Assembly (NCBI GenBank): GCA_964016885.1
Contig: OZ024741.1
Location: 177,258,001 to 177,322,000, forward strand
DNA from: Eledone cirrhosa
Taxonomy: Eukaryota
DNA: 64,000 nucleotides
Direction: 5' to 3'
Shown: positions 3,668 through 63,188 of the stretch, piece by piece
Layout of the letters: every line of letters starts with the position of its first letter
Position numbering within the stretch: position 1 is the stretch's first letter
Made by a program: the position numbers and the translations under genes
The notes under the pieces: generated by a model
The model's database searches: none
What the model saw: only the letters and a program-made list of their open reading frames with translations
What the model was told of the DNA's origin: nothing

Positions 3668-3760
<93 letters not shown>

Positions 3761-3762
<2 letters not shown>

Positions 3763-4105
3763 GAATATATGTATAGTATATTTGGCAATATACTGTATGC
3801 TTAATTAAAAACATTTTGAAGACCACTTTCTGATTATTACTGGAATTCTATGAGAATCCTGCCTCTATAATGTTCAACAAAGGTCGGCGAGTGGTAAGCT
3901 CTGATGATCACCAACTGTGGGAAACAGATCTGTCAGCTTATCTCCCTTAGACTGTTGAAAAAAGAAGTAAGTGACATAGTCACTACTTTAAAATAATTGC
4001 GCAAGGTCTTCAAAATGTTGTTAATTAAGCATAAAGTATATTGCCAAATATACTATACCTACATTCATGTATACATCCCTCTTTCAGAGCACAAATCCTA
4101 ATTTA
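3761..4105 (+). mobile_element. Short fold-back hammerhead-bearing element related to the 310-bp satellite unit
   Basis: Inverted repeat 3761-3824 / 4005-4068; the ggtcttcaaaatgtt...tttcagagca...ctaattt segment aligns with the 310-bp unit. Confidence 0.7.
3895..3940 (+). ncRNA. Type I hammerhead ribozyme
   Basis: taagct-CTGATGA-tcac caact gtgg-GAAA-cagatctg-TC-agctta; perfect helix I, palindromic helix III, GUC site. Confidence 0.9.
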
Positions 4106-4227
4106 TATATATCCACCACTGAATATGTTGTCAACACGGTGAGGGAGATAGAGAAGAATACCTAATACAATTTCCCTGTCAAAGTTAGCACCAACGGATT
4201 TTTGCCTAACACCTGTGTCTCCTTAGA

Positions 4228-5169: not shown

Positions 5170-5929
5170 CCTCTCTTTATATATATATATACATATATAT
5201 ATGTATATAAATACATATATGTATATAAATACAAATATGTATATGTGTGTATGTGCGTGTGTGCATGTAAGAGGACTGCTTATGTGTGTATGTAGCTGTC
5301 CGCGTGTGCATGCATGTATACACCAATATTCTCTCTCCTCTCGGTGAATTTTCTCACCGTCTAATTCTCTAAAATATTTTGTACGTATATTCCTATGATT
5401 CTTCTTTTTTGTCATTTTTTCATCATTACTTTTATTCTCGTCATTTTTTTCATTCAGCCCCGGCATGGAATGCATGCATAAAGTTTACTAGCATAATAAA
5501 TACACACACACACAGACACACACGCACTTGCAGATACAGAAACTAAATTAATACATCTCTGCTGGTAAATGATTCTGAATGCGTGTACTCCCAGCCCACA
5601 CATGCATGTATCACGGGCACAGAGGATAGAATGTGCAAATAAAATATATTAGAAATATAGCAATGCTTGTAATACAATAATGAGCAGCTGAACACATACG
5701 CATAGTAGGAAAATGATTCTACACATATATAACAACCACTCTTGTACTCTATCGAATTTTTGATTAAATACATGGGGGCAGATGATATATTTTAGAGCTA
5801 GTTCCTAAATTTAATTGTATTTTATCACCACTTGTTGTCATAATACATATTGAGGGATGGGTGCTTCATAATATTTATTGATCTGACATGGTGTCTAATT
5901 AAACTCGAAATGCTTAATTACAGCTCTTT

Positions 5930-6800
5930 GTATTCGGGATCGTATTCCTTTGGTCATTACGTAAGATTTCTGAGCAAAGGTAAGGGATGTCACGAACACC
6001 AAGTTGAAGATAGCGACATTGGCTTTTATACCTACCTCATTTTTTCTGAGGAGCAAGAATGTACCACTGCCACAGCTTCTTCAATCCTGGCATTTACGCA
6101 CGCTTTCCAACGCATCATAAAAAAGCAAACTTATCCAATCATCTTCCTAGGAGTCTTCATCTTCGTATTCTGCTGGTTTTATTTTGCCCGTAAAATCTGT
6201 CCAGCAATTCTTTCCTGAGAGATTCTAAACATGTCAAACATATCCATGAAATTATAAACAGCAACATTGACAGTAAGCACTCTTCGTTTATTTCGACATC
6301 AGCATTGAATGGTTTCTCCTTAGAACTATTTATACGAACACAAATACTAGGGCATACATATAAGTACATCATATCAAACAACATCATATCAGCCGATCCC
6401 ATAATCCTGGAGAATCTTCCACAATAGCTCATTAGCACGAAGTAAGATGCTTCTTTGATTTCTTCAAAATAGTATCCCTCTCGACGAGACTCTCATGATT
6501 ATGCAGCAACCGTAATATGAATATTTGTTCGATTATGCTGCATCCAGGACGAACACTTCACTATTCGGCAGCCTGTCTGGTGTCGACAAACTTCCTACAT
6601 CTCTTTGCCGGATTCCTAGCATAGACTTTAAGAGATCCCTTAATCATTGGAGCGCTCTCTTCGAAACATCACTGCCGATTGCCATTGCTTAGGTACATTT
6701 CCAGAGATCCACTCCACTCGACACAAAGCAGTCAGCTTAGGCCGAATTTCATCTTCCCCAGCAGCTTTGGCACATTTGAGAGGTTTTACATTGCTCCCAG
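5930..6800 (-). mobile_element. Highly degenerate LINE (RTE-like) RT fragment
   Basis: KAAGEDEIRP...WISGNVPKQWQSAV and LY...VRINSS...F...CLLSMLLF resemble LINE RT motifs; many frameshifts; boundaries approximate. Confidence 0.6.
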
Positions 6801-7877
6801 ATGCACCTCTTATACATAACAAGTAGCTGTTGTGACCGGGCTTACCTGATGAACAATGTATTCTTTACTCCCGACGAGAATACTCCTCTCATAGGAAAGG
6901 AGAACCACAACCGCTTTCCTGTTAGCAAGCATGGGGAAGGAATTATTATTGCAGTGTTGGTGTATGGTGAATTAGAACATTTCATTTACTTATATCCAAG
7001 CCAAGCCTTGTAAACTCGCTTCTTAACTTGGTGAATTAGAACATTTTATTTGGTGATCTGAAGAAGGATTTCAGCTTACAAAGTCCTATTCTATACATTT
7101 CAGCACATTTACTGTTTTTTGCGACGACGTTTTGTGTCTGCTGGTACCGCAAGTGCAAGAGGAAAGTCTTATATCCAAGCCTTGTAAACTCCCTTCTTAC
7201 CTTGGATGTCATCTTTAAATACTTGAATGAATTAAGGGTTCTTCGTACCATCCGGTGCCTCACCAAGCCCCTTTCACCCGTCACGTTCAACAGCTAAAGC
7301 AGAAACTGCTGAACTCAACGGTCACCACTAAATTTCGACTTCATCATTTTATTCAAATTTTCTCGGAATTCCGTTAAACTAGCATCCACAAACATAATCC
7401 TGACTTTATTATATGCCAATGCTTTAACTTTAACCTGTAGCGCGAGCTGAACCTAGAATTCCTGTGGGCGTCCTTGGCTTTAAAATGTCTGAGGTTGCAG
7501 ATAACTAAATGTGGAACCGTTGTCACTTCAGTCCTTCAGTTTCAATGAACATACAACCCAGAATCTAAGAGCTCAGGGACAACAACTAAATTACTTACTG
7601 TTCTCTGTCCCCGACTTCCTTTATACCATGTGTATTTACGAAAGTCTCTGTGTTTGAAGAAGGTGTACATAATAGAGAGCCAGTTAATAAAACAGATGTC
7701 TAAGACATCCATTTGTATTTAGATGGGATCGACGTTCCTTCCAGCGATGCATTTTCAAATATTACTGCATCACTCCAGGGAATTTACATATTGTGTTGTC
7801 TGTCTGGCAATGCTTGATAGTGGACAGCTGATTGACCCTCAACATTTCCAATCCTCACACACCTATACGCCCACACC

Positions 7878-7915
<38 letters not shown>

Positions 7916-7931
7916 GATAGATATCTATATC

Positions 7932-8045
<114 letters not shown>

Positions 8046-8048
8046 TAT

Positions 8049-8165
8049 ATATTGTTATACTTTGGGAGGGTATGTTTCTTATTGGCAACATGACCCTCCC
8101 AAAGTATAACAATATCGGTTTCAACACACGATTTCAGATAAAGAATCTTGCTAAACAAATTCAGA
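8049..8165. mobile_element. Short fold-back PLE terminal fragment
   Basis: atattgttatactttgggagggt / accctcccaaagtataacaatat inverted pair; similar to the terminus at 62100-62175. Confidence 0.7.
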
Positions 8166-17124: not shown

Positions 17125-19448
17125 TGTGTGTGTGTGTGTGTCTATTTATATGCATATATATTTATGTATATATATATATATATATATTGCCCTATAGAAT
17201 TATAAAGATTGATATATTTTTGAGCGGAAGTGTTATTTCGTGTGTAAGAATACGGATTTGTGTAGACATGAGGTTGTGTTTATGAAGAGGTTTAAGATTT
17301 CATTTATAAAATTTATAAAATTATTGTTTTCATATTCTTTGAATGTTTACGATCTAAAAATAATGTGATGCATAAATGAATTGCAAAGTTGTATCGACAA
17401 GAAACATTAATGATAGTTGTTGCAATATTTTGATACGTTTAGTGATATGCGAAAGAATTTAAACAACATTAACATCATCAATACTAGCAAACCATTATAG
17501 TTAACATACATTTTTATAACATAGAAAACAATTTGATTTCATGTCATTTTAATTTTTCTTTTATATCTCGCTTCTGGTAACTCTTCACTAAGTAATCATA
17601 ATAACCTGCATTATGCTAAGTCAAATGAAATGCAGATTTCTTTTCCTTCTTTTAAACGGTGCTTTCAATAAATCATAAATTCATGTTACTGAAAAAATAC
17701 ATTTCTTAGAATATGGCTTTCTTGAAAGGATGATTTTCTGTTATCAAAAGATACTATTTTAAACTGAGATGAAGTAACGATTTATTTAATAACTTGTAAT
17801 TTTATTAATCCATAAATCAGATTATTTATTTGTAACATTTGTGATAAGGTAATATTGTCCATATTTGTCTCAGGAATGACTAATGTAATTAATCTCATTG
17901 GAAATTTGACCAGGAATTAATTGAAAGATTAAGTCTTCTGGAATTATGATAGATTGTGCCAGTGATTAAAGTCACTGCTTCTGTGTTAATTGTGCAGGCC
18001 GTTCAATAAAAGGACACATTATTTGCAGACAGAAAGTTTGTCTGAGATGGAAACAAAGATAAAAGATATGTCAATGTTATTAAGATGTGAGATAGTGATT
18101 AATTCGAAGCTTCTTCACTGAAGATTTCAATCAGATGTTACCTGCTCCTTTTTGCTATTGTTGAAACCGTTGTTATTTTTGTCGTGATAGTTTCAAAGTC
18201 TAGTTATTTCATATCAAGCAGTCATATGCCATGGAAACAGTTAATTGAATACATGCTGGTCAAACATAAATTCATTAAGCCTGATCTGATATAATCCATA
18301 TATCATTTATAGATAAAAGTTTAAACTTGTTATATATGTAATTTGAACATAGAATTATAAGATTGATTACGAAATTATTTCCACAATAATGGTGTTCCCG
18401 ATACAATCCCAAAGCGTGGCATCTATAGGACGTGTTTTACCATAAGTCTCGGGTCGATCCAATATCTCGTGAATAAAATTGGGCGGATGGATACTGCGTT
18501 GAAGCCCCATGAATGAATAGCATCTCTATTTCTAGTCTTGCTGTACATTGCATCAGACTTGCGAAAGAGCATATATCAGATTGCATCAGACTTGCGTAAG
18601 AGCATATATATGAAAGAAATAATTGGCCACTTATACATAAGTGCACGTTCAGCTCATTGGAGACCCGAATATACATCATCAAATCTGACGGGGACTCCAT
18701 CATAAGATATACAGGAATTATAACTAACAGAAATATATTTAGTTTTAATAAAAGTAAATTTAATCAACCTGATGACAAACATCATTGATCTATTTATAAC
18801 AATTTGGAATATTCCACAACTCTCTTTATGTTTTTAGAGAACAGTAAGTTGTTGAAGGTGTATCCCCATTGTTTCTCGGAATGCAACACCTGTTTGATCA
18901 ATATAGTCTTCATGGCAAGATTTATGTCATTTGCATTATGAAAATCGAGGGGTAATTTTTTTATTTGAAAATAGCTACATTTTCAAGCGAAGTTTCGTAA
19001 TCTTACCATTCTGTTGATTCAGCTATTCGACATCAGAACAATATGGCATTAATGACTAAAATATATGCGTAGACTAAAGCTAAACTCATTCTACATTCGC
19101 TAATATATGACATTAAATTACATTCATAGTCAAACTAGAGCCGTGTATTTTGCGTTGGAAATGTAACATGTAAGGGACAACAAAGTTACAACGAATTGTG
19201 TCCATTGTCTTAGAAAGGACGGAAGCAACACCAAATAAAAAGGTATTCCACAGAATCATAGCAACGTGTGTGAAATACATGCAACACCATCACAAATTAA
19301 AATGAAGATTTGTCAAACTACTCACAGTTTAACCGGTTATGTCAAAATTTTACAAAAAAAAAACACGAATATTTCTAAGAAACCAGAAACGTACTAACAC
19401 ACACGTGCACGCACGTGCGCACACACACGTAGTCGCACGCACGCGCAC

Positions 19449-25699: not shown

Positions 25700-26310
25700 T
25701 AATAAAGAAATGTAAGCCTGATAGTGGGGTTTAGAACCCTCAGAGAAATGGAAAAAGATGAGTATTGACGTACATGGGAGTCGAACCCACATCTTTGGTT
25801 ATCCAGACCACTGTGCTACCATTACACCAAAACATCACCCATCTGCTTCCATTCAAATTAGAAGCTACATTCTTAGCAAGTATGATGACAAGTAAGTATG
25901 TTTTGAAACAGTGAGTAAGTCTGAAATTAAAAAATAGAAGCTTTCACCGTATTTTTAGTCTAAAGAAATTTTAGCCTGATAGTGAAGTTTAGAACCCTCA
26001 GAGAAATGGAAAACGACTTGCTCACTGTTTCAAAACATACTTACTTGTCGTCATACTTGCTAATAATGTAACATCTAATTTGAATGGAAGGAGATGGGTA
26101 ATGTGTTAGTGTAATGGTAGCACAGTGGTCTGGTAAACCAAAGATGTGGGTTCGATTCCCTTGTACGTCAATACTCATCTTTTTCCATTTCTCTGAGGGT
26201 TCTAAACCACACTATCAGGCTAAAATTTCTTTAGTCAAAAAATACGGTGAAAGCATCTATTTTCTAATTTCAAACTTGCGCACTGTTTCAAAACATACTT
26301 ACTTGATATA
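25700..26310. mobile_element. Fold-back element with a tRNA-like segment in each arm
   Basis: 26100-26170: tagtgtaatggtagcac (A box), ctggtaa loop, gggttcgattccc (B box); inverted copy at about 25765-25837. Confidence 0.7.
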
Positions 26311-44771: not shown

Positions 44772-45007
44772 GTTTTAATATAGAAGAGATTCTACAGGAC
44801 TAGAACTGTTTCATTCATTAGAAATCATCAGGAATCTGGGTATCAAAAAATAAATATTTATTTTTTGATACCCAGATTCCTGATGATTTCTAATGAATGA
44901 AACAGTTCTAGTCCTGTAGAATCTCTTCTATATTAAAACTGTTATACTCTGCTATGTATTGAGTACCTTACTTACTGTGGTTACCTCCGATTCAACCCGG
45001 AATAACG
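44772..45007. mobile_element. Palindromic mini-element with two head-to-head hammerheads (44787-44837 -, 44874-44924 +)
   Basis: agattc-CTGATGA-t ttc taat gaa t-GAAA-cag ttctagtc ctg-TA-gaatct on both arms; flanked by (TA)n. Confidence 0.85.
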
Positions 45008-48880: not shown

Positions 48881-48960
<80 letters not shown>

Positions 48961-48965
<5 letters not shown>

Positions 48966-51900
48966 GAATGTAATTGTAATACGTGACGTATTCTATTCTA
49001 TAGCGATTAGGTCTTCAAAATGTTTATTATAAACATACAGAATATTTTCGAATATTCTATGTCTATCTTCACATATATATCGCTATTTCAGAGCATTTAA
49101 TCTAATTTCTAATTTCTGCCGGACCGGCAACCGCTCTTTCAAACCAGTTCCTGTACACAGCTAAGTATTCTATAAGTCTCTAGCTGTGTCATTCTCGATA
49201 AAAGCACTGGATATGTAATCCTGAAGATTTCTAATAAGAATGAAACGCGTAGGTTACTTCCCTTGCCTTTATCGAGAATCTAATTGTAATACGTGACGTA
49301 TTCTATTCTATAGCTATTAGGTCTTCAAAATGTTTATTATAAACATACAGAATATATTCGAATATTCTATGTCTATCTTCACATATATATCGCTATTTCA
49401 GAGCATTTAATCTAATTTCTAATTTCTGCCGGACCGGCAAGCGCTCTTTCAAACCAGTTCCTGTACACAGCTAAGTATTCTATAAGTCTCTAGCTGTGTC
49501 ATTCTCGATAAAAGCACTGGATATGTAATCCTGAAGATTTCTAATAAGAATGAAACGCGTAGGTTACTTCCCTTGCTTTTATCGAGAATCTAATTGTAAT
49601 ACGTGACGTATTCTATTCTATAGCGATTAGGTCTTCAAAATGTTTATTATAAACATACAGAATATTTTCGAATATTCTATGTCTATCTTCACATATATAT
49701 CGCTATTTCAGAGCATTTAATCTAATTTCTAATTTCTGCCGGACCGGCAACCGCTCTTTCAAACCAGTTCCTGTACACAGCTAAGTATTCTATAAGTCTC
49801 TAGCTGTGTCATTCTCGATAAAAGCACTGGATATGTAATCCTGAAGATTTCTAATAAGAATGAAACGCGTAGGTTACTTCCCTTGCTTTTATCGAGAATC
49901 TAATTGTAATACGTGACGTATTCTATTCTATAGCGATTAGGTCTTCAAAATGTTTATTATAAACATACAGAATATTTTCGAATATTCTATGTCTATCTTC
50001 ACATATATATCGCTATTTCAGAGCATTTAATCTAATTTCTAATTTCTGCCGGACCGGCAACCGCTCTTTCAAACCAGTTCCTGTACACAGCTAAGTCTTC
50101 TATAAGTCTCTAGCTGTGTCATTCTCGATAAAAGCACTGGATATGTAATCCTGAAGATTTCTAATAAGAATGAAACGCGTAGGTTACTTCCCTTGCTTTT
50201 ATCGAGAATCTAATTGTAATACGTGACGTATTCTATTCTATAGCGATTAGGTCTTCAAAATGTTTATTATAAACATACAGAATATTTTCGAATATTCTAT
50301 GTCTATCTTCACATATATATCGCTATTTCAGAGCATTTAATCTAATTTCTAATTTCTGCCGGACCGGCAACCGCTCTTTCAAACCAGTTCCTGTACACAG
50401 CTAAGTATTCTATAAGTCTCTAGCTGTGTCATTCTCGATAAAAGCACTGGATATGTAATCCTGAAGATTTCTAATAAGAATGAAACGCGTAGGTTACTTC
50501 CCTTGCTTTTATCGAGAATCTAATTGTAATACGTGACGTATTCTATTCTATAGCGATTAGGTCTTCAAAATGTTTATTATAAACATACAGAATATTTTCG
50601 AATATTCTATGTCTATCTTCACATATATATCGCTATTTCAGAGCATTTAATCTAATTTCTAATTTCTGCCGGACCGGCAACCGCTCTTTCAAACCAGTTC
50701 CTGTACACAGCTAAGTATTCTATAAGTCTCTAGCTGTGTCATTCTCGATAAAAGCACTGGATATGTAATCCTGAAGATTTCTAATAAGAATGAAACGCGT
50801 AGGTTACTTCCCTTGCCTTTATCGAGAATCTAATTGTAATACGTGACGTATTCTATTCTATAGCTATTAGGTCTTCAAAATGTTTATTATAAACATACAG
50901 AATATATTCGAATATTCTATGTCTATCTTCACATATATATCGCTATTTCAGAGCATTTAATCTAATTTCTAATTTCTGCCGGACCGGCAAGCGCTCTTTC
51001 AAACCAGTTCCTGTACACAGCTAAGTATTCTATAAGTCTCTAGCTGTGTCATTCTCGATAAAAGCACTGGATATGTAATCCTGAAGATTTCTAATAAGAA
51101 TGAAACGCGTAGGTTACTTCCCTTGCTTTTATCGAGAATCTAATTGTAATACGTGACGTATTCTATTCTATAGCGATTAGGTCTTCAAAATGTTTATTAT
51201 AAACATACAGAATATTTTCGAATATTCTATGTCTATCTTCACATATATATCGCTATTTCAGAGCATTTAATCTAATTTCTAATTTCTGCCGGACCGGCAA
51301 GCGCTCTTTCAAACCAGTTCCTGTACACAGCTAAGTATTCTATAAGTCTCTAGCTGTGTCATTCTCGATAAAAGCACTGGATATGTAATCCTGAAGATTT
51401 CTAATAAGAATGAAACGCGTAGGTTACTTCCCTTGCTTTTATCGAGAATCTAATTGTAATACGTGACGTATTCTATTCTATAGCGATTAGGTCTTCAAAA
51501 TGTTTATTATAAACATACAGAATATTTTCGAATATTCTATGTCTATCTTCACATATATATCGCTATTTCAGAGCATATAATCTAATTTCTAATTTCTGCC
51601 GGACCGGCAACCGCTCTTTCAAACCAGTTCCTGTACACAGCTAAGTCTTCTATAAGTCTCTAGCTGTGTCATTCTCGATAAAAGCACTGGATATGTAATC
51701 CTGAAGATTTCTAATAAGAATGAAACGCGTAGGTTACTTCCCTTGCTTTTATCGAGAATCTAATTGTAATACGTGACGTATTCTATTCTATAGCGATTAG
51801 GTCTTCAAAATGTTTATTATAAACATACAGAATATTTTCGAATATTCTATGTCTATCTTCACATATATATCGCTATTTCAGAGCATTTAATCTAATTTCT

Positions 51901-54900
51901 AATTTCTGCCGGACCGGCAACCGCTCTTTCAAACCAGTTCCTGTACACAGCTAAGTATTCTATAAGTCTCTAGCTGTGTCATTCTCGATAAAAGCACTGG
52001 ATATGTAATCCTGAAGATTTCTAATAAGAATGAAACGCGTAGGTTACTTCCCTTGCTTTTATCGAGAATCTAATTGTAATACGTGACGTATTCTATTCTA
52101 TAGCGATTAGGTCTTCAAAATGTTTATTATAAACATACAGAATATTTTCGAATATTCTATGTCTATCTTCACATATATATCGCTATTTCAGAGCATTTAA
52201 TCTAATTTCTAATTTCTGCCGGACCGGCAACCGCTCTTTCAAACCAGTTCCTGTACACAGCTAAGTATTCTATAAGTCTCTAGCTGTGTCATTCTCGATA
52301 AAAGCACTGGATATGTAATCCTGAAGATTTCTAATAAGAATGAAACGCGTAGGTTACTTCCCTTGCCTTTATCGAGAATCTAATTGTAATACGTGACGTA
52401 TTCTATTCTATAGCTATTAGGTCTTCAAAATGTTTATTATAAACATACAGAATATATTCGAATATTCTATGTCTATCTTCACATATATATCGCTATTTCA
52501 GAGCATTTAATCTAATTTCTAATTTCTGCCGGACTGGCAAGCGCTCTTTCAAACCAGTTCCTGTACACAGCTAAGTATTCTATAAGTCTCTAGCTGTGTC
52601 ATTATCGATAAAAGCACTGGATATGTAATCCTGAAGATTTCTAATAAGAATGAAACGCGTAGGTTACTTGCCTTGCTTTTATCGAGAATCTAATTGTAAT
52701 ACGTGACGTATTCTATTCTATAGCGATTAGGTCTTCAAAATGTTTATTATAAACATACAGAATATTTTCGAATATTCTATGTCTATCTTCACATATATAT
52801 CGCTATTTCAGAGCATTTAATCTAATTTCTAATTTCTGCCGGACCGGCAACCGCTCTTTCAAACCAGTTCCTGTACACAGCTAAGTATTCTATAAGTCTC
52901 TAGCTGTGTCATTCTCGATAAAAGCACTGGATATGTAATCCTGAAGATTTCTAATAAGAATGAAACGCGTAGGTTACTTCCCTTGCTTTTATCGAGAATC
53001 TAATTGTAATACGTGACGTATTCTATTCTATAGCGATTAGGTCTTCAAAATGTTTATTATAAACATACAGAATATTTTCGAATATTCTATGTCTATCTTC
53101 ACATATATATCGCTATTTCAGAGCATTTAATCTAATTTCTAATTTCTGCCGGACCGGCAACCGCTCTTTCAAACCAGTTCCTGTACACAGCTAAGTATTC
53201 TATAAGTCTCTAGCTGTGTCATTCTCGATAAAAGCACTGGATATGTAATCCTGAAGATTTCTAATAAGAATGAAACGCGTAGGTTACTTCCCTTGCCTTT
53301 ATCGAGAATCTAATTGTAATACGTGACGTATTCTATTCTATAGCTATTAGGTCTTCAAAATGTTTATTATAAACATACAGAATATATTCGAATATTCTAT
53401 GTCTATCTTCACATATATATCGCTATTTCAGAGCATTTAATCTAATTTCTAATTTCTGCCGGACCGGCAAGCGCTCTTTCAAACCAGTTCCTGTACACAG
53501 CTAAGTATTCTATAAGTCTCTAGCTGTGTCATTCTCGATAAAAGCACTGGATATGTAATCCTGAAGATTTCTAATAAGAATGAAACGCGTAGGTTACTTC
53601 CCTTGCTTTTATCGAGAATCTAATTGTAATACGTGACGTATTCTATTCTATAGCGATTAGGTCTTCAAAATGTTTATTATAAACATACAGAATATTTTCG
53701 AATATTCTATGTCTATCTTCACATATATATCGCTATTTCAGAGCATTTAATCTAATTTCTAATTTCTGCCGGACCGGCAACCGCTCTTTCAAACCAGTTC
53801 CTGTACACAGCTAAGTATTCTATAAGTCTCTAGCTGTGTCATTCTCGATAAAAGCACTGGATATGTAATCCTGAAGATTTCTAATAAGAATGAAACGCGT
53901 AGGTTACTTCCCTTGCTTTTATCGAGAATCTAATTGTAATACGTGACGTATTCTATTCTATAGCGATTAGGTCTTCAAAATGTTTATTATAAACATACAG
54001 AATATTTTCGAATATTCTATGTCTATCTTCACATATATATCGCTATTTCAGAGCATTTAATCTAATTTCTAATTTCTGCCGGACCGGCAACCGCTCTTTC
54101 AAACCAGTTCCTGTACACAGCTAAGTCTTCTATAAGTCTCTAGCTGTGTCATTCTCGATAAAAGCACTGGATATGTAATCCTGAAGATTTCTAATAAGAA
54201 TGAAACGCGTAGGTTACTTCCCTTGCTTTTATCGAGAATCTAATTGTAATACGTGACGTATTCTATTCTATAGCGATTAGGTCTTCAAAATGTTTATTAT
54301 AAACATACAGAATATTTTCGAATATTCTATGTCTATCTTCACATATATATCGCTATTTCAGAGCATTTAATCTAATTTCTAATTTCTGCCGGACCGGCAA
54401 GCGCTCTTTCAAACCAGTTCCTGTACACAGCTAAGTATTCTATAAGTCTCTAGCTGTGTCATTCTCGATAAAAGCACTGGATATGTAATCCTGAAGATTT
54501 CTAATAAGAATGAAACGCGTAGGTTACTTCCCTTGCTTTTATCGAGAATCTAATTGTAATACGTGACGTATTCTATTCTATAGCGATTAGGTCTTCAAAA
54601 TGTTTATTATAAACATACAGAATATTTTCGAATATTCTATGTCTATCTTCACATATATATCGCTATTTCAGAGCATTTAATCTAATTTCTAATTTCTGCC
54701 GGACCGGCAACCGCTCTTTCAAACCAGTTCCTGTACACAGCTAAGTCTTCTATAAGTCTCTAGCTGTGTCATTCTCGATAAAAGCACTGGATATGTAATC
54801 CTGAAGATTTCTAATAAGAATGAAACGCGTAGGTTACTTCCCTTGCTTTTATCGAGAATCTAATTGTAATACGTGACGTATTCTATTCTATAGCGATTAG

Positions 54901-57760
54901 GTCTTCAAAATGTTTATTATAAACATACAGAATATTTTCGAATATTCTATGTCTATCTTCACATAGATATCGCTATTTCAGAGCATTTAATCTAATTTCT
55001 AATTTCTGCCGGACCGGCAACCGCTCTTTCAAACCAGTTCCTGTACACAGCTAAGTATTCTATAAGTCTCTAGCTGTGTCATTCTCGATAAAAGCACTGG
55101 ATATGTAATCCTGAAGATTTCTAATAAGAATGAAACGCGTAGGTTACTTCCCTTGCTTTTATCGAGAATCTAATTGTAATACGTGACGTATTCTATTCTA
55201 TAGCGATTAGGTCTTCAAAATGTTTATTATAAACATACAGAATATTTTCGAATATTCTATGTCTATCTTCAAATATATATCGCTATTTCAGAGCATTTAA
55301 TCTAATTTCTAATTTCTGCCGGACCGGCAACCGCTCTTTCAAACCAGTTCCTGTACACAGCTAAGTATTCTATAAGTCTCTAGCTGTGTCATTCTCGATA
55401 AAAGCACTGGATATGTAATCCTGAAGATTTCTAATAAGAATGAAACGCGTAGGTTACTTCCCTTGCCTTTATCGAGAATCTAATTGTAATACGTGACGTA
55501 TTCTATTCTATAGCTATTAGGTCTTCAAAATGTTTATTATAAACATACAGAATATATTCGAATATTCTATGTCTATCTTCACATATATATCGCTATTTCA
55601 GAGCATTTAATCTAATTTCTAATTTCTGCCGGACCGGCAAGCGCTCTTTCAAACCAGTTCCTGTACACAGCTAAGTATTCTATAAGTCTCTAGCTGTGTC
55701 ATTCTCGATAAAAGCACTGGATATGTAATCCTGAAGATTTCTAATAAGAATGAAACGCGTAGGTTACTTCCCTTGCTTTTATCGAGAATCTAATTGTAAT
55801 ACGTGACGTATTCTATTCTATAGCGATTAGGTCTTCAAAATGTTTATTATAAACATACAGAATATTTTCGAATATTCTATGTCTATCTTCACATATATAT
55901 CGCTATTTCAGAGCATTTAATCTAATTTCTAATTTCTGCCGGACCGGCAACCGCTCTTTCAAACCAGTTCCTGTACACAGCTAAGTCTTCTATAAGTCTC
56001 TAGCTGTGTCATTCTCGATAAAAGCACTGGATATGTAATCCTGAAGATTTCTAATAAGAATGAAACGCGTAGGTTACTTCCCTTGCTTTTATCGAGAATC
56101 TAATTGTAATACGTGACGTATTCTATTCTATAGCGATTAGGTCTTCAAAATGTTTATTATAAACATACAGAATATTTTCGAATATTCTATGTCTATCTTC
56201 ACATATATATCGCTATTTCAGAGCATTTAATCTAATTTCTAATTTCTGCCGGACCGGCAACCGCTCTTTCAAACCAGTTCCTGTACACAGCTAAGTATTC
56301 TATAAGTCTCTAGCTGTGTTATTCTCGATAAAAGCACTGGATATGTAATCCTGAAGATTTCTAATAAGAATGAAACGCGTAGGTTACTTCCCTTGCTTTT
56401 ATCGAGAATCTAATTGTAATACGTGACGTATTCTATTCTATAGCGATTAGGTCTTCAAAATGTTTATTATAAACATACAGAATATTTTCGAATATTCTAT
56501 GTCTATCTTCACATATATATCGCTATTTCAGATCATTTAATCTAATTTCTAATTTCTGCCGGACCGGCAACCACTCTTTCAAACCAGTTCCTGTACACAG
56601 CTAAGTATTCTATAAGTCTCTAGCTGTGTCATTCTCGATAAAAGCACTGGATATGTAATCCTGAAGATTTCTAATAAGAATGAAACGCGTAGGTTACTTC
56701 CCTTGCTTTTATCGAGAATCTAATTGTAATACGTGACGTATTCTATTCTATAGCGATTAGGTCTTCAAAATGTTTATTATAAACATACAGAATATTTTCG
56801 AATATTCTATGTCTATCTTCACATATATATCGCTATTTCAGAGCGTTTAATCTAATTTCTAATTGCTGCCGGACCGGCAACCGCTCTTTCAAACCAGTTC
56901 CTGTACACAGCTAAGTATTCTATAAGTCTCTAGCTGTGTCATTCTCGATAAAAGCACTGGATATGTAATCCTGAAGATTTCTAATAAGAATGAAACGCGT
57001 AGGTTACTTCCCTTGCTTTTATCGAGAATCTAATTGTAATACGTGACGTATTCTATTCTATAGCGATTAGGTCTTCAAAATGTTTATTATAAACATACAG
57101 AATATTTTCGAATATTCTATGTCTATCTTCACATATATATCGCTATTTCAGAGCATTTAATCTAATTTCTAATTTCTGCCGGACCGGCAACCGCTCTTTC
57201 AAACCAGTTCCTGTACACAGCTAAGTATTCTATAAGTCTCTAGCTGTGTCATTCTCGATAAAAGCACTGGATATGTAATCCTGAAGATTTCTAATAAGAA
57301 TGAAACGCGTAGGTTACTTCCCTTGCTTTTATCGAGAATCTAATTGTAATACGTGACGTATTCTATTCTATAGCGATTAGGTCTTCAAAATGTTTATTAT
57401 AAACATACAGAATATTTTCGAATATTCTATGTCTATCTTCACATATATATCGCTATTTCAGAGCATTTAATCTAATTTCTAATTTCTGCCGGACCGGCAA
57501 CCGCTCTTTCAAACCAGTTCCTGTACACAGCTAAGTATTCTATAAGTCTCTAGCTGTGTCATTCTCGATAAAAGCACTGGATATGTAATCCTGAAGATTT
57601 CTAATAAGAATGAAACGCGTAGGTTACTTCCCTTGCTTTTATCGAGAATCTAATTGTAATACGTGACGTATTCTATTCTATAGCGATTAGGTCTTCAAAA
57701 TGTTTATTATAAACATACAGCATATTTTCGAATATTCTATGTCTATCTTCACATATATAT
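48961..57760 (+). repeat. Tandem array of 28 full plus one partial 310-bp units, each carrying a hammerhead ribozyme (non-LTR retrozyme-like satellite)
   Basis: Exact 310-bp period (unit starts 48961 ... 57641); few substitutions; (TA)n on both sides. Confidence 0.97.
49215..49257 (+). ncRNA. Minimal type I hammerhead ribozyme (first of 28 copies, repeated every 310 bp)
   Basis: gtaatc-CTGAAGA-t ttct aata agaa t-GAAA-cgcg-TA-ggttac; helix I gtaatc/ggttac; palindromic acgcgt; predicted cleavage after 49251. Confidence 0.9.
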
Positions 57761-57800
57761 ATATATATATTTATATATGTATATATATATATATATATAT

Positions 57801-62460
<4,660 letters not shown>

Positions 62461-63188
62461 TATATATATATATATATATAAAGATTTGAATGGATACAGT
62501 TTAGTTGAAAGGAATTCATTGACACGTGTTTCTATAACAGTTACATAACCTGAAAACAGCTGCGATCTACAAAGTTTTAGTTATGCAGACATTCAATATT
62601 TCAATGTTATTATTTACTGTCATTTCATCAGAATAATATTACTGAGGACCTATTTAGTTTTTATAGAGAATATTAGGAGGGAGGGGTGAAGTTGTTAGAA
62701 GAATAGTTGAAGGAGTAGTTTTTCGATAGCAGTGAGAATTCTTGGTGGCAGTGAGTAATTAGATTCCCATCTGTTGTTTTGACATTTTTTATAGAATATA
62801 TTATTGGTTATTTTTCTAAATCTATAGAAGGATTAGAGATAGTAAAGATATGCGTGGTTGGTTTTGTGTTTGCACTTAATTAACATTCAGACTTAAATTT
62901 TTCTTTCAAGTGTACGTATCCTTTCACCCACTCATTCACACACAAATATATTTGCACACCTCTACAAAATACATATACTCACAATTCACATATTCATACT
63001 TACATACATATACACATGCATACACATATATATACACACATGTATTCATGTACATACATACGCGCTCATGTGTATACATTTTCATACTCAACTTATCTTT
63101 ATATACACACGTATAGACACACACATATATACATACATACTCTAGTCCATGTGTACACACATACACATACATACACATCTATATACAC

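Follow-up and report, generated by a model that had tools for sequence, protein, structure and literature searches.

A hammerhead retrozyme family of Eledone cirrhosa: a conserved RNA fold and insertion scars that point to a Penelope-type enzyme copying unit-length RNA

A tandem array of 310-nt units in the genome of Eledone cirrhosa is, almost beyond doubt, a non-LTR (type I hammerhead) retrozyme, and selection acts on the fold of its RNA. Our main reading, to which we assign a probability of about 0.7, is that this retrozyme is selected as sense-strand RNA and is inserted by the reverse transcriptase and endonuclease of a Penelope-like element (PLE), which copies a unit-length, likely circular RNA into (TA)n tracts. 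The array lies in a window, by which we mean the whole stretch of 64,000 nt analysed (contig OZ024741.1, positions 177,258,001 to 177,322,000, forward strand), and it is compared below with sister loci elsewhere in the genome. Positions are counted from the first base of the window; within a unit, u1 denotes the first base past the predicted cut, which is 49562 in the second unit.

The array and its hammerheads

The array and the microsatellites on either side of it are the following.

48881..48962, no strand: (TA)n tract at the 5' end of the array, from sequence
48960..57760, + strand: retrozyme array, 28.4 x 310 nt with 28 hammerheads, a one-armed insertion
57753..57800, no strand: (TA)n tract at the 3' end of the array, which stops at u139, in the 'short' class of ends

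The units repeat with a period of 310 nt, are 99% identical to one another and have a GC content of 0.34. The array starts at about u19, within the 3' arm of the long helix described below, and overlaps the (TA)n tract there by a few bases. The genome, which measures 3.0 Gb and is rich in microsatellites, holds at least 16,700 unit junctions, that is, 1,783 copies of the window type and 14,929 of a younger subfamily, both counted as exact matches, with inexact junctions falling outside the count. Unit length in the sampled loci is 309-312 nt; a 312-nt subfamily (L195-L233) has a 2-nt insertion after u30, just beyond the long helix.

Hammerhead cores occur 28 times in the array, spaced 310 nt apart. 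For the ribozyme that ends at the second unit, the parts are given here as read from the sequence, except where another basis is named.

49519..49530, + strand: 5' strand of inner helix I (3 bp, UAU bulge, 6 bp), pairing with 49562-49571
49531..49561, + strand: type I hammerhead core, from sequence and a weak Rfam HH9 match that aligns the core in register
49531-49537, + strand: CUGAAGA of the core
between CUGAAGA and GAAA, + strand: helix II, with U.U at its base, 4 bp and an AAUA loop
49552-49555, + strand: GAAA of the core
49555-49560, + strand: helix III, a palindromic 6-mer
49561, + strand: predicted cut, after the GUA triplet

Core positions carry the standard hammerhead numbering. The Rfam score of the hammerhead is weak (17.1 bits, E 0.13, against a gathering threshold of 52), and at gathering thresholds a search of the whole window returns no ribozyme and only two tRNA-like matches. 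These are divergent, near-identical sequences at 25766-25836 (-) and 26100-26170 (+), perhaps an inverted tRNA-derived repeat. Helix III has a predicted energy of -7.5 kcal/mol as a dimer, as opposed to +6.0 as a hairpin, and helix II reaches a pair probability of only 5-7% in the predicted circle. A scan of the minus strand of the array found no hammerhead; other ribozyme classes on that strand were covered by the Rfam scans.

Not one of 33 locus-wide variants changes the core, and a single core variant is present in 3 units of one arm of locus L045. A related family, F2, has U3 and A8 where the window family has C3 and G8, and this U3:A8 swap of the core pair is reported to be a natural, active hammerhead variant (PMC3088659). 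The unusual helices have counterparts in axolotl, where HHR_Amex1 has a similar helix III, of one pair and a palindromic tetraloop, and HHR_Amex2 a similar U.U at the base of helix II; both of these ribozymes cut well only as dimers (PMC7229834). Among nine predicted Xenopus retrozymes, eight gave no cleavage in vitro (10.64898/2026.07.22.740005).

Retrozymes are tandem units of 150-450 bp with low GC, each with a type I hammerhead, found as dispersed copies and arrays without LTR-type structure and predicted to form a stable, self-paired circle. The element described here has 28.4 units of 310 nt at low GC, with 28 hammerhead cores; helices I-III can be placed, at a score below Rfam gathering; its ends directly adjoin (TA)n, and its unit folds with a z-score of -4.35. 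No RT-like frame of 170 aa or more lies within the array, so the array is not itself an autonomous Penelope-like element. Animal non-LTR retrozymes likewise carry one type I hammerhead per tandem unit and need no coding frame, and those of coral, mussel and axolotl are expressed as structured circular RNAs (PMC7229834); circles were shown there, whereas here they are predicted from genome sequence alone. A structured fold is an expected property of this described class, and is not new.

The fold of the unit and selection upon it

The first-pass annotation had described the unit as densely self-complementary, with a number of short hairpins and a perfect 16-bp helix across the unit junction. 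The strings it named are where it placed them, and 49501-49516 is indeed the exact reverse complement of 49574-49589. The paired elements of the fold are listed below.

49501..49516, + strand: 5' arm of the outer, 16-bp part of helix I (u250-265), from covariation
49574..49589, + strand: 3' arm of the same helix (u13-28 of the next unit), from covariation
49598..49678, + strand: three branch hairpins (u37-51, u79-95, u98-117), from the fold
49710..49809, + strand: helices u149-153/192-196 and u176-188 and hairpin u214-248, from the fold and covariation

The 16-bp helix, which is perfect at 22 of the 28 junctions, is the outer part of hammerhead helix I; that is, helix I consists of 6 bp, a bulge, 3 bp, a 2x2 loop and 16 bp, and its duplex (6+3+16 = 25 bp) has an energy of -29.9 kcal/mol. 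The unit folded as a circle has an MFE of -69.2 kcal/mol; its dinucleotide shuffles average -47.4 +/- 5.0, and none of 300 does as well (z -4.35). The linear unit gives z -4.52; 59% of bases are paired. The unit has a perfect inverted repeat of 16, and no such repeat in 2000 shuffles is longer than 14. The word 'densely' owes much to the long helix: the body without helix I (unit 29-249) gives only z -2.31, is equalled by 4 of 300 shuffles, and has 58% of its bases paired as compared with 50 +/- 5%. Since the minus strand folds equally well (z -5.19), energy alone cannot pick the strand or the function.

Two of the hairpins had been written with 1-nt loops, which cannot close; atgtttat/ataaacat and tgccgg/ccggca are present, with real stems of 7 bp and 5 bp respectively. 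The helix atagcgat/atcgctat has its letters in place and a pair probability of 0.5-0.6, but is absent from the MFE structure. The inner pairs of the other five noted helices have probabilities of 0.86-1.0.

Diverged relatives allow the fold to be compared across families. Family F2 (316-318 nt, 64% identical to the window unit) has 2,954 first-look candidates in the genome and family F4 (66% identical) has 1,776; their circular folds have z-scores of -7.93 and -3.93 respectively, with 0 of 150 shuffles as good in each case. Our covariation alignment comprises 17 natural copies, namely 3 window units, 13 of 30 full-length F2 copies and the one full-length F4 copy, and it thus compares one family split over related sequences, with the structure derived from one of them. 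Relative to F2, both sides have changed in 4 of the long helix's 12 outer pairs, and 97.5% of cells are paired, as opposed to 35-47% in slid controls; F2 also has one double change in hairpin u79-95 and two in hairpin u98-117. One of six helices tested, atagcg/cgctat, fails, with 30% of cells paired; the alignment shifts F2 by one base there, and F2's own fold contains a similar helix. RNAalifold recovers the long helix and two hairpins and misfolds the core. The long helix, then, is kept through double changes in diverged families, and the branched fold proposed at first pass is both beyond chance and kept by covariation.

Variation within the window's own family (413 units from 85 loci) can be used in a similar way. 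Among locus-wide variants, 8 keep a pair and 3 break one; among single-unit variants, 8 keep a pair, 42 break one and 2 fall in the core (p 3.6e-4). Only 2 of the 11 locus-wide pair variants would pair on the antisense strand, and 9 would not. Since locus-wide variants keep pairs, and do so specifically on the sense strand, we conclude that the fold is selected in sense RNA. The core and helices are under purifying selection, and the tail region, defined below, is among the best conserved unit sequence across F1, F2 and F4.

The window contains a second, diverged retrozyme copy, of family F4, at 3753-4110, two-armed and lying between (TA)n tracts. Another hammerhead tandem family, F3 (L035 6400-7000; L131-L145), has units of 440-540 nt that contain a microsatellite, and a long interrupted helix I of its own; it numbers 2,446 candidates at 96-97% identity and does not align to F1. 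Further diverged relatives of the unit, at 71-83% identity, were seen at L111 958-1023, L201 2152-2320, L219, L242 and L257; with these relatives, the conserved 3' region is common to at least five families.

It had also been suggested that the long helix holds the two cleaved ends together and would favour ligation into a circle. The helix is continuous with helix I, and in a closed monomer it would pin the new 5' end beside the core that bears the 3' end. This account is sound as far as it goes but incomplete: in a tandem transcript the helix joins neighbouring units, as it does at 3 of 3 junctions of a folded trimer. Cut monomers would accordingly stay clasped to their neighbours and would have to swap identical arms in order to close upon themselves; such arm exchange, together with incomplete, dimer-dependent cutting, would also yield oligomeric rings. 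Because self-ligation of the animal retrozymes tested is poor (about 1-3%, compared with 30-80% for RtcB ligase; PMC7229834), a host ligase is the likelier closer of the ring.

Insertion ends and a candidate enzyme

We examined the ends of 40 best-hit loci including the window, of 39 loci and 16 young loci that were both taken in positional order, and of 3 further loci reached through a variant, together with one completed end. Read in the sense of the ribozyme, 164 of 166 closed 3' ends fall in u120-140 or u155-173, two sites about 30 nt apart (66/67, 64/65, 27/27 and 7/7 per sample; class limits of 126-140 and 158-173 in the 40 best-hit loci). A (TA)n tract follows the 3' end immediately in 62 of 67 and in 62 of 65 cases. 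Where both ends of a two-armed locus are seen, one is short and the other long in 67 of 68 loci; in the positional sample, the arms of all 26 two-armed loci meet head to head, and in 20 of these loci some bases overlap where the arms meet. Copies of F2 and F4 have the same two ends. Across the genome, one exact form of the long-end junction occurs in 1,006 copies, and one short-end form in 462. The corresponding region of the unit is:

49689..49733, + strand: putative reverse-transcription start region, with the short-end site u128-139, the 'tail' u140-165 and the long-end site u158-172

These ends match what is described for PLEs, whose copies have an inverted, 5'-truncated arm, a tail of 30-40 bp at one end and a bias towards (TA)n (PMC8557442). 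The Hydra and Neptune PLEs of that account share with the retrozyme the (TA)n targeting, the 5' truncation, the inverted arm, the tail at one end only and a hammerhead upstream of the 3' end. In the Anolis Poseidon system, a purified PLE protein nicks the two strands and extends each of them, and its cDNA begins at two neighbouring internal sites, one on either side of the tail (PMC11167929), just as two internal start sites are predicted for the retrozyme. There are differences as well: the retrozyme has no ORF, it consists entirely of the terminal unit in up to 28 repeats, and its hammerhead sits in a 25-bp helix I. With a one-end tail, an inverted 5'-truncated arm and a microsatellite target borne out by 164 of 166 ends and 67 of 68 two-armed loci, we regard PLE-type insertion of the retrozyme as very probable.

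The sole arm of the best-hit sample that ends outside both sites, at L040 2180-2503 (-), enters a perfect hairpin of about 30 bp at u191 and continues into a second hairpin with a 9-nt motif common to the retrozyme, and then into (TA)n and a Hydra-type ORF fragment. Variant positions are mixed when a mirror-image fold-back origin of the inverted arm is considered.

The same genome contains a young PLE family, all 97 scored matches of which are 97-100% identical in protein sequence; many of them keep an open frame of 785 aa, and an intact ORF lies at 5710-8064 of locus L176. Its protein has the RWK, DKT, CxCX5C, CxxC and CxH motifs of the Hydra clade, an assignment made by reading motifs against section 11 of PMC8557442; a Pfam search did not recognise the Hydra-type protein. 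The element carries a hammerhead in its terminal repeat, and at 4 of 4 complete two-armed loci it meets (TA)n with a short end on one side and a long end on the other. Its tail exceeds 100 nt, rather than 30, and has no homology to the retrozyme tail. This intact Hydra-clade PLE is a candidate partner. Among the matches listed, BLAST of three retrozyme families against 236 stretches (1.12 Mb) gave no terminal homology to an autonomous PLE, in a comparison that covered the ends of two PLE families; the matches listed were retrozyme-like relatives and one 28-nt core resemblance to a PLE (E 0.004-0.013). A motif search for the conserved block with some other continuation yielded 16 candidates, all of which were rejected as the text of mutated F1 copies or of F2/F4 copies.

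Several PLE-like features lie near the array. Some 400 bp from it, at 58150-62600 (-), is a PLE with RT (YVDD) and GIY-YIG frames split by a stop near 59645. It has terminal pieces in tandem and a 5' fragment in inverted orientation, and among the repeats upstream of it is the 3' end of the young Hydra-clade element. Further hammerhead motifs at PLE-like 3' ends are found in the window at 19208, 19925, 24618, 39924 and 44833-44918. The one at 44878-44903 resembles the retrozyme's core and helix II at 89% over 28 nt, and also occurs upstream of a Hydra-type ORF in L179.

The template and the proposed cycle

What kind of RNA was copied can be judged from the 5' ends and from the uniformity of each locus. 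The 5' breakpoints are distributed evenly along the unit (chi-square p 0.40), and 9 of 132 lie within 8 nt of the cut site, compared with 6.8 expected (p 0.43). Since 5' ends ignore the cut site, copying did not end there by running off the RNA, although read-through in the best-hit loci is partly due to selection, those loci having been chosen for a full unit.

Private variants are common to both arms in 10 of 28 loci, as compared with at most 4 in 20,000 permutations. In 39 young loci with at least two full units (209 units, about five of them counted twice; about a quarter of the loci found via a variant pattern and the rest by position), 73% of within-locus unit pairs are identical, as opposed to 9% of pairs between loci. 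No minority variant is present in two units in 38 of these 39 loci, the exception being a locus that was fetched twice, and the 39 loci show 20 different locus-wide haplotypes, most of which were seen once. Since a new variant is fixed in all units of both arms, a one-unit template must have been copied repeatedly. A covalent circle is the simplest template of one unit, and we consider the covalent monomer circle to be probably, though with real room for doubt, the main one.

Not every array is uniform. In the window array, a four-change haplotype that partly breaks the helix recurs in 5 units with a rough period of 5, and another variant is also present in 5 units; one searched change of the four occurs in 3 other places, without the other three. 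Several older loci show variant periods of 2, 3 or 5. Later in-place duplication of DNA, or oligomeric templates, would explain this non-uniformity. In L037, and partly in L031, one variant unit lies equidistant from both outer ends, a placement that fits a multimeric template.

Contigs of 340 nt (310 + 30, with the shape of a ring or a collapsed tandem), one each in runs X4, X5 and X6, were considered as circular RNA and rejected. The X4 and X6 haplotypes belong to genomic loci L191 and L190, from a subfamily with 14,929 copies, and the same runs hold low-depth PLE pieces, as thin DNA coverage would.

One may also suppose that the PLE enzyme inserts an uncut or partly cut linear multimer, that uniform arrays come from uniform sources, and that circles are a by-product or absent. 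The periodic variants of the window and older loci and the matching end distances of the variant unit in L037 fit such a template, as do the weakness of helix III, the dispensability of cleavage for PLE insertion in vitro (PMC11167929) and the accumulation of multimers by axolotl retrozymes (PMC7229834). We nonetheless think it unlikely, for 20 locus-wide haplotypes in 39 young loci, fixed in both arms, need a one-unit bottleneck; partly cut multimers would pile up 5' ends at cut sites, where there is no pile-up; and the core and helices are under purifying selection.

A one-unit bottleneck and read-through are explained equally well if what is copied is a linear monomer, already cut, whose ends the 25-bp helix I at -29.9 kcal/mol keeps together as a nicked ring, with the reverse transcriptase jumping the nick, so that the helix splints copying and not ligation; the poor self-ligation of related RNAs (PMC7229834) is in keeping with this. 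We hold it to be distinctly unlikely in view of the exact junctions in 1,783 + 14,929 copies (counts of exact matches only), of units that stay at 309-312 nt, of stops at the nick that are not in excess, and of the related retrozymes shown as covalent circles (PMC7229834).

The array might, thirdly, be an ordinary satellite spread by DNA-level recombination, its inverted repeats being DNA features and its hammerhead a relic of a PLE terminal repeat. A DNA-level route has been proposed (10.64898/2026.07.22.740005), and the periodic helix-breaking variants of the window array suggest some in-place duplication of DNA. As a general account this is very improbable: more than 1,000 separate insertions share one exact long-end junction alone, the two 3' end sites are fixed, the pairing of short and long arms is strict, and conservation is of the G.U type and strand-specific. 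The satellite route is disfavoured by the end statistics and retains only a secondary role, in older arrays.

Hammerhead viroids and viroid-like satellite RNAs are infectious RNA replicons with no DNA phase, with ribozymes mostly on both strands. The retrozyme likewise has a small structured RNA, a hammerhead and, as predicted, multimer-to-monomer processing, but it is a chromosomal repeat with retro-insertion ends and a ribozyme on the sense strand only. The term 'viroid-like', applied to the fold at first pass, is thus an overstatement for a genomic retroelement of a described class in which no minus-strand hammerhead was found. An endogenised viroid-like replicon that also copies RNA to RNA would have a small, structured, ribozyme-bearing unit, both strands of which fold well, as here, but is extremely improbable given that the array scan found no minus-strand hammerhead and that there are several related genomic families of graded age, all with retroelement-type ends.

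Returning to the reading that we prefer, PLE-type insertion from a one-unit circle, the cycle might run as follows. The array would be transcribed as a multimer, in which each hammerhead would cut after GUA, likely as a pair of ribozymes because the palindromic 6-mer of helix III cannot fold alone. The 25-bp helix I would then swap from the neighbour's arm to the unit's own arm, holding the ends until a host ligase joins them; in the monomer circle the ribozyme would be alone and nearly inactive. A PLE protein would nick a (TA)n tract on both strands, and from either nick cDNA would be primed at one of the two internal sites, u128-139 and u158-172. Each cDNA would pass the ligated junction for one to dozens of rounds and stop at a random place, and the two cDNAs would be joined head to head. 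The analysis itself shows the fold, its covariation, the positions of the ends, the pairing of arms and the uniformity of young insertions, whereas we infer that the array is transcribed, cut and ligated into a covalent circle, and which enzyme copies it. PLE insertion in vitro needs no hammerhead cleavage (PMC11167929), which counts against the cycle as proposed.

An excess of A-to-G changes may bear on the RNA stage. Such changes make up 13 of 38 locus-wide and 10 of 111 single-unit changes (p 5e-4; p 0.03 against T-to-C), the polarity of change being taken from subfamily majorities and hence uncertain. At the helix I positions u20 and u276 they recur on several backgrounds. Selection for G.U pairs explains part of the excess, and the RNA may in addition have undergone A-to-I editing before it was copied. 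More speculatively, and as something we would not expect to hold in full, the loci may be a record of rolling-circle reverse transcription of a covalent circle by a dimeric Penelope-type enzyme with one start site for each half, with a hammerhead switch that acts only in dimers, cutting multimers and sparing the monomer circle, and with the A-to-G excess as A-to-I editing written into the genome.

Both the enzyme that inserts retrozymes and the circle as its template are still hypotheses in the sources consulted (PMC7229834; 10.64898/2026.07.22.740005). The latter source treats vertebrate retrozymes as derivatives of PLE pseudo-LTRs that co-occur with PLEs, and proposes a non-autonomous use of PLE enzymes; it argues from co-distribution and homology, invokes unequal crossover for array growth, and calls its own life-cycle evidence limited. 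Its text offers no analysis of junctions or tails, in contrast to the loci presented here, and the main text of PMC7229834 mentions no inverted arms, tails or microsatellite targets, whereas here ends, arm pairing and within-locus uniformity are measured. A literature search over largely open-access papers listed no study of retrozyme insertion junctions or tails. The new part is the insertion scars of sister loci, that is, the end sites, the arm pairing and the uniformity within each locus. This retrozyme family is young enough and large enough for its insertion mechanism to be read from such scars, and what a test of that mechanism would need comes from one genome: two places at which cDNA is predicted to start, a tail that has been conserved, (TA)n as the target, and a candidate protein from an intact PLE.
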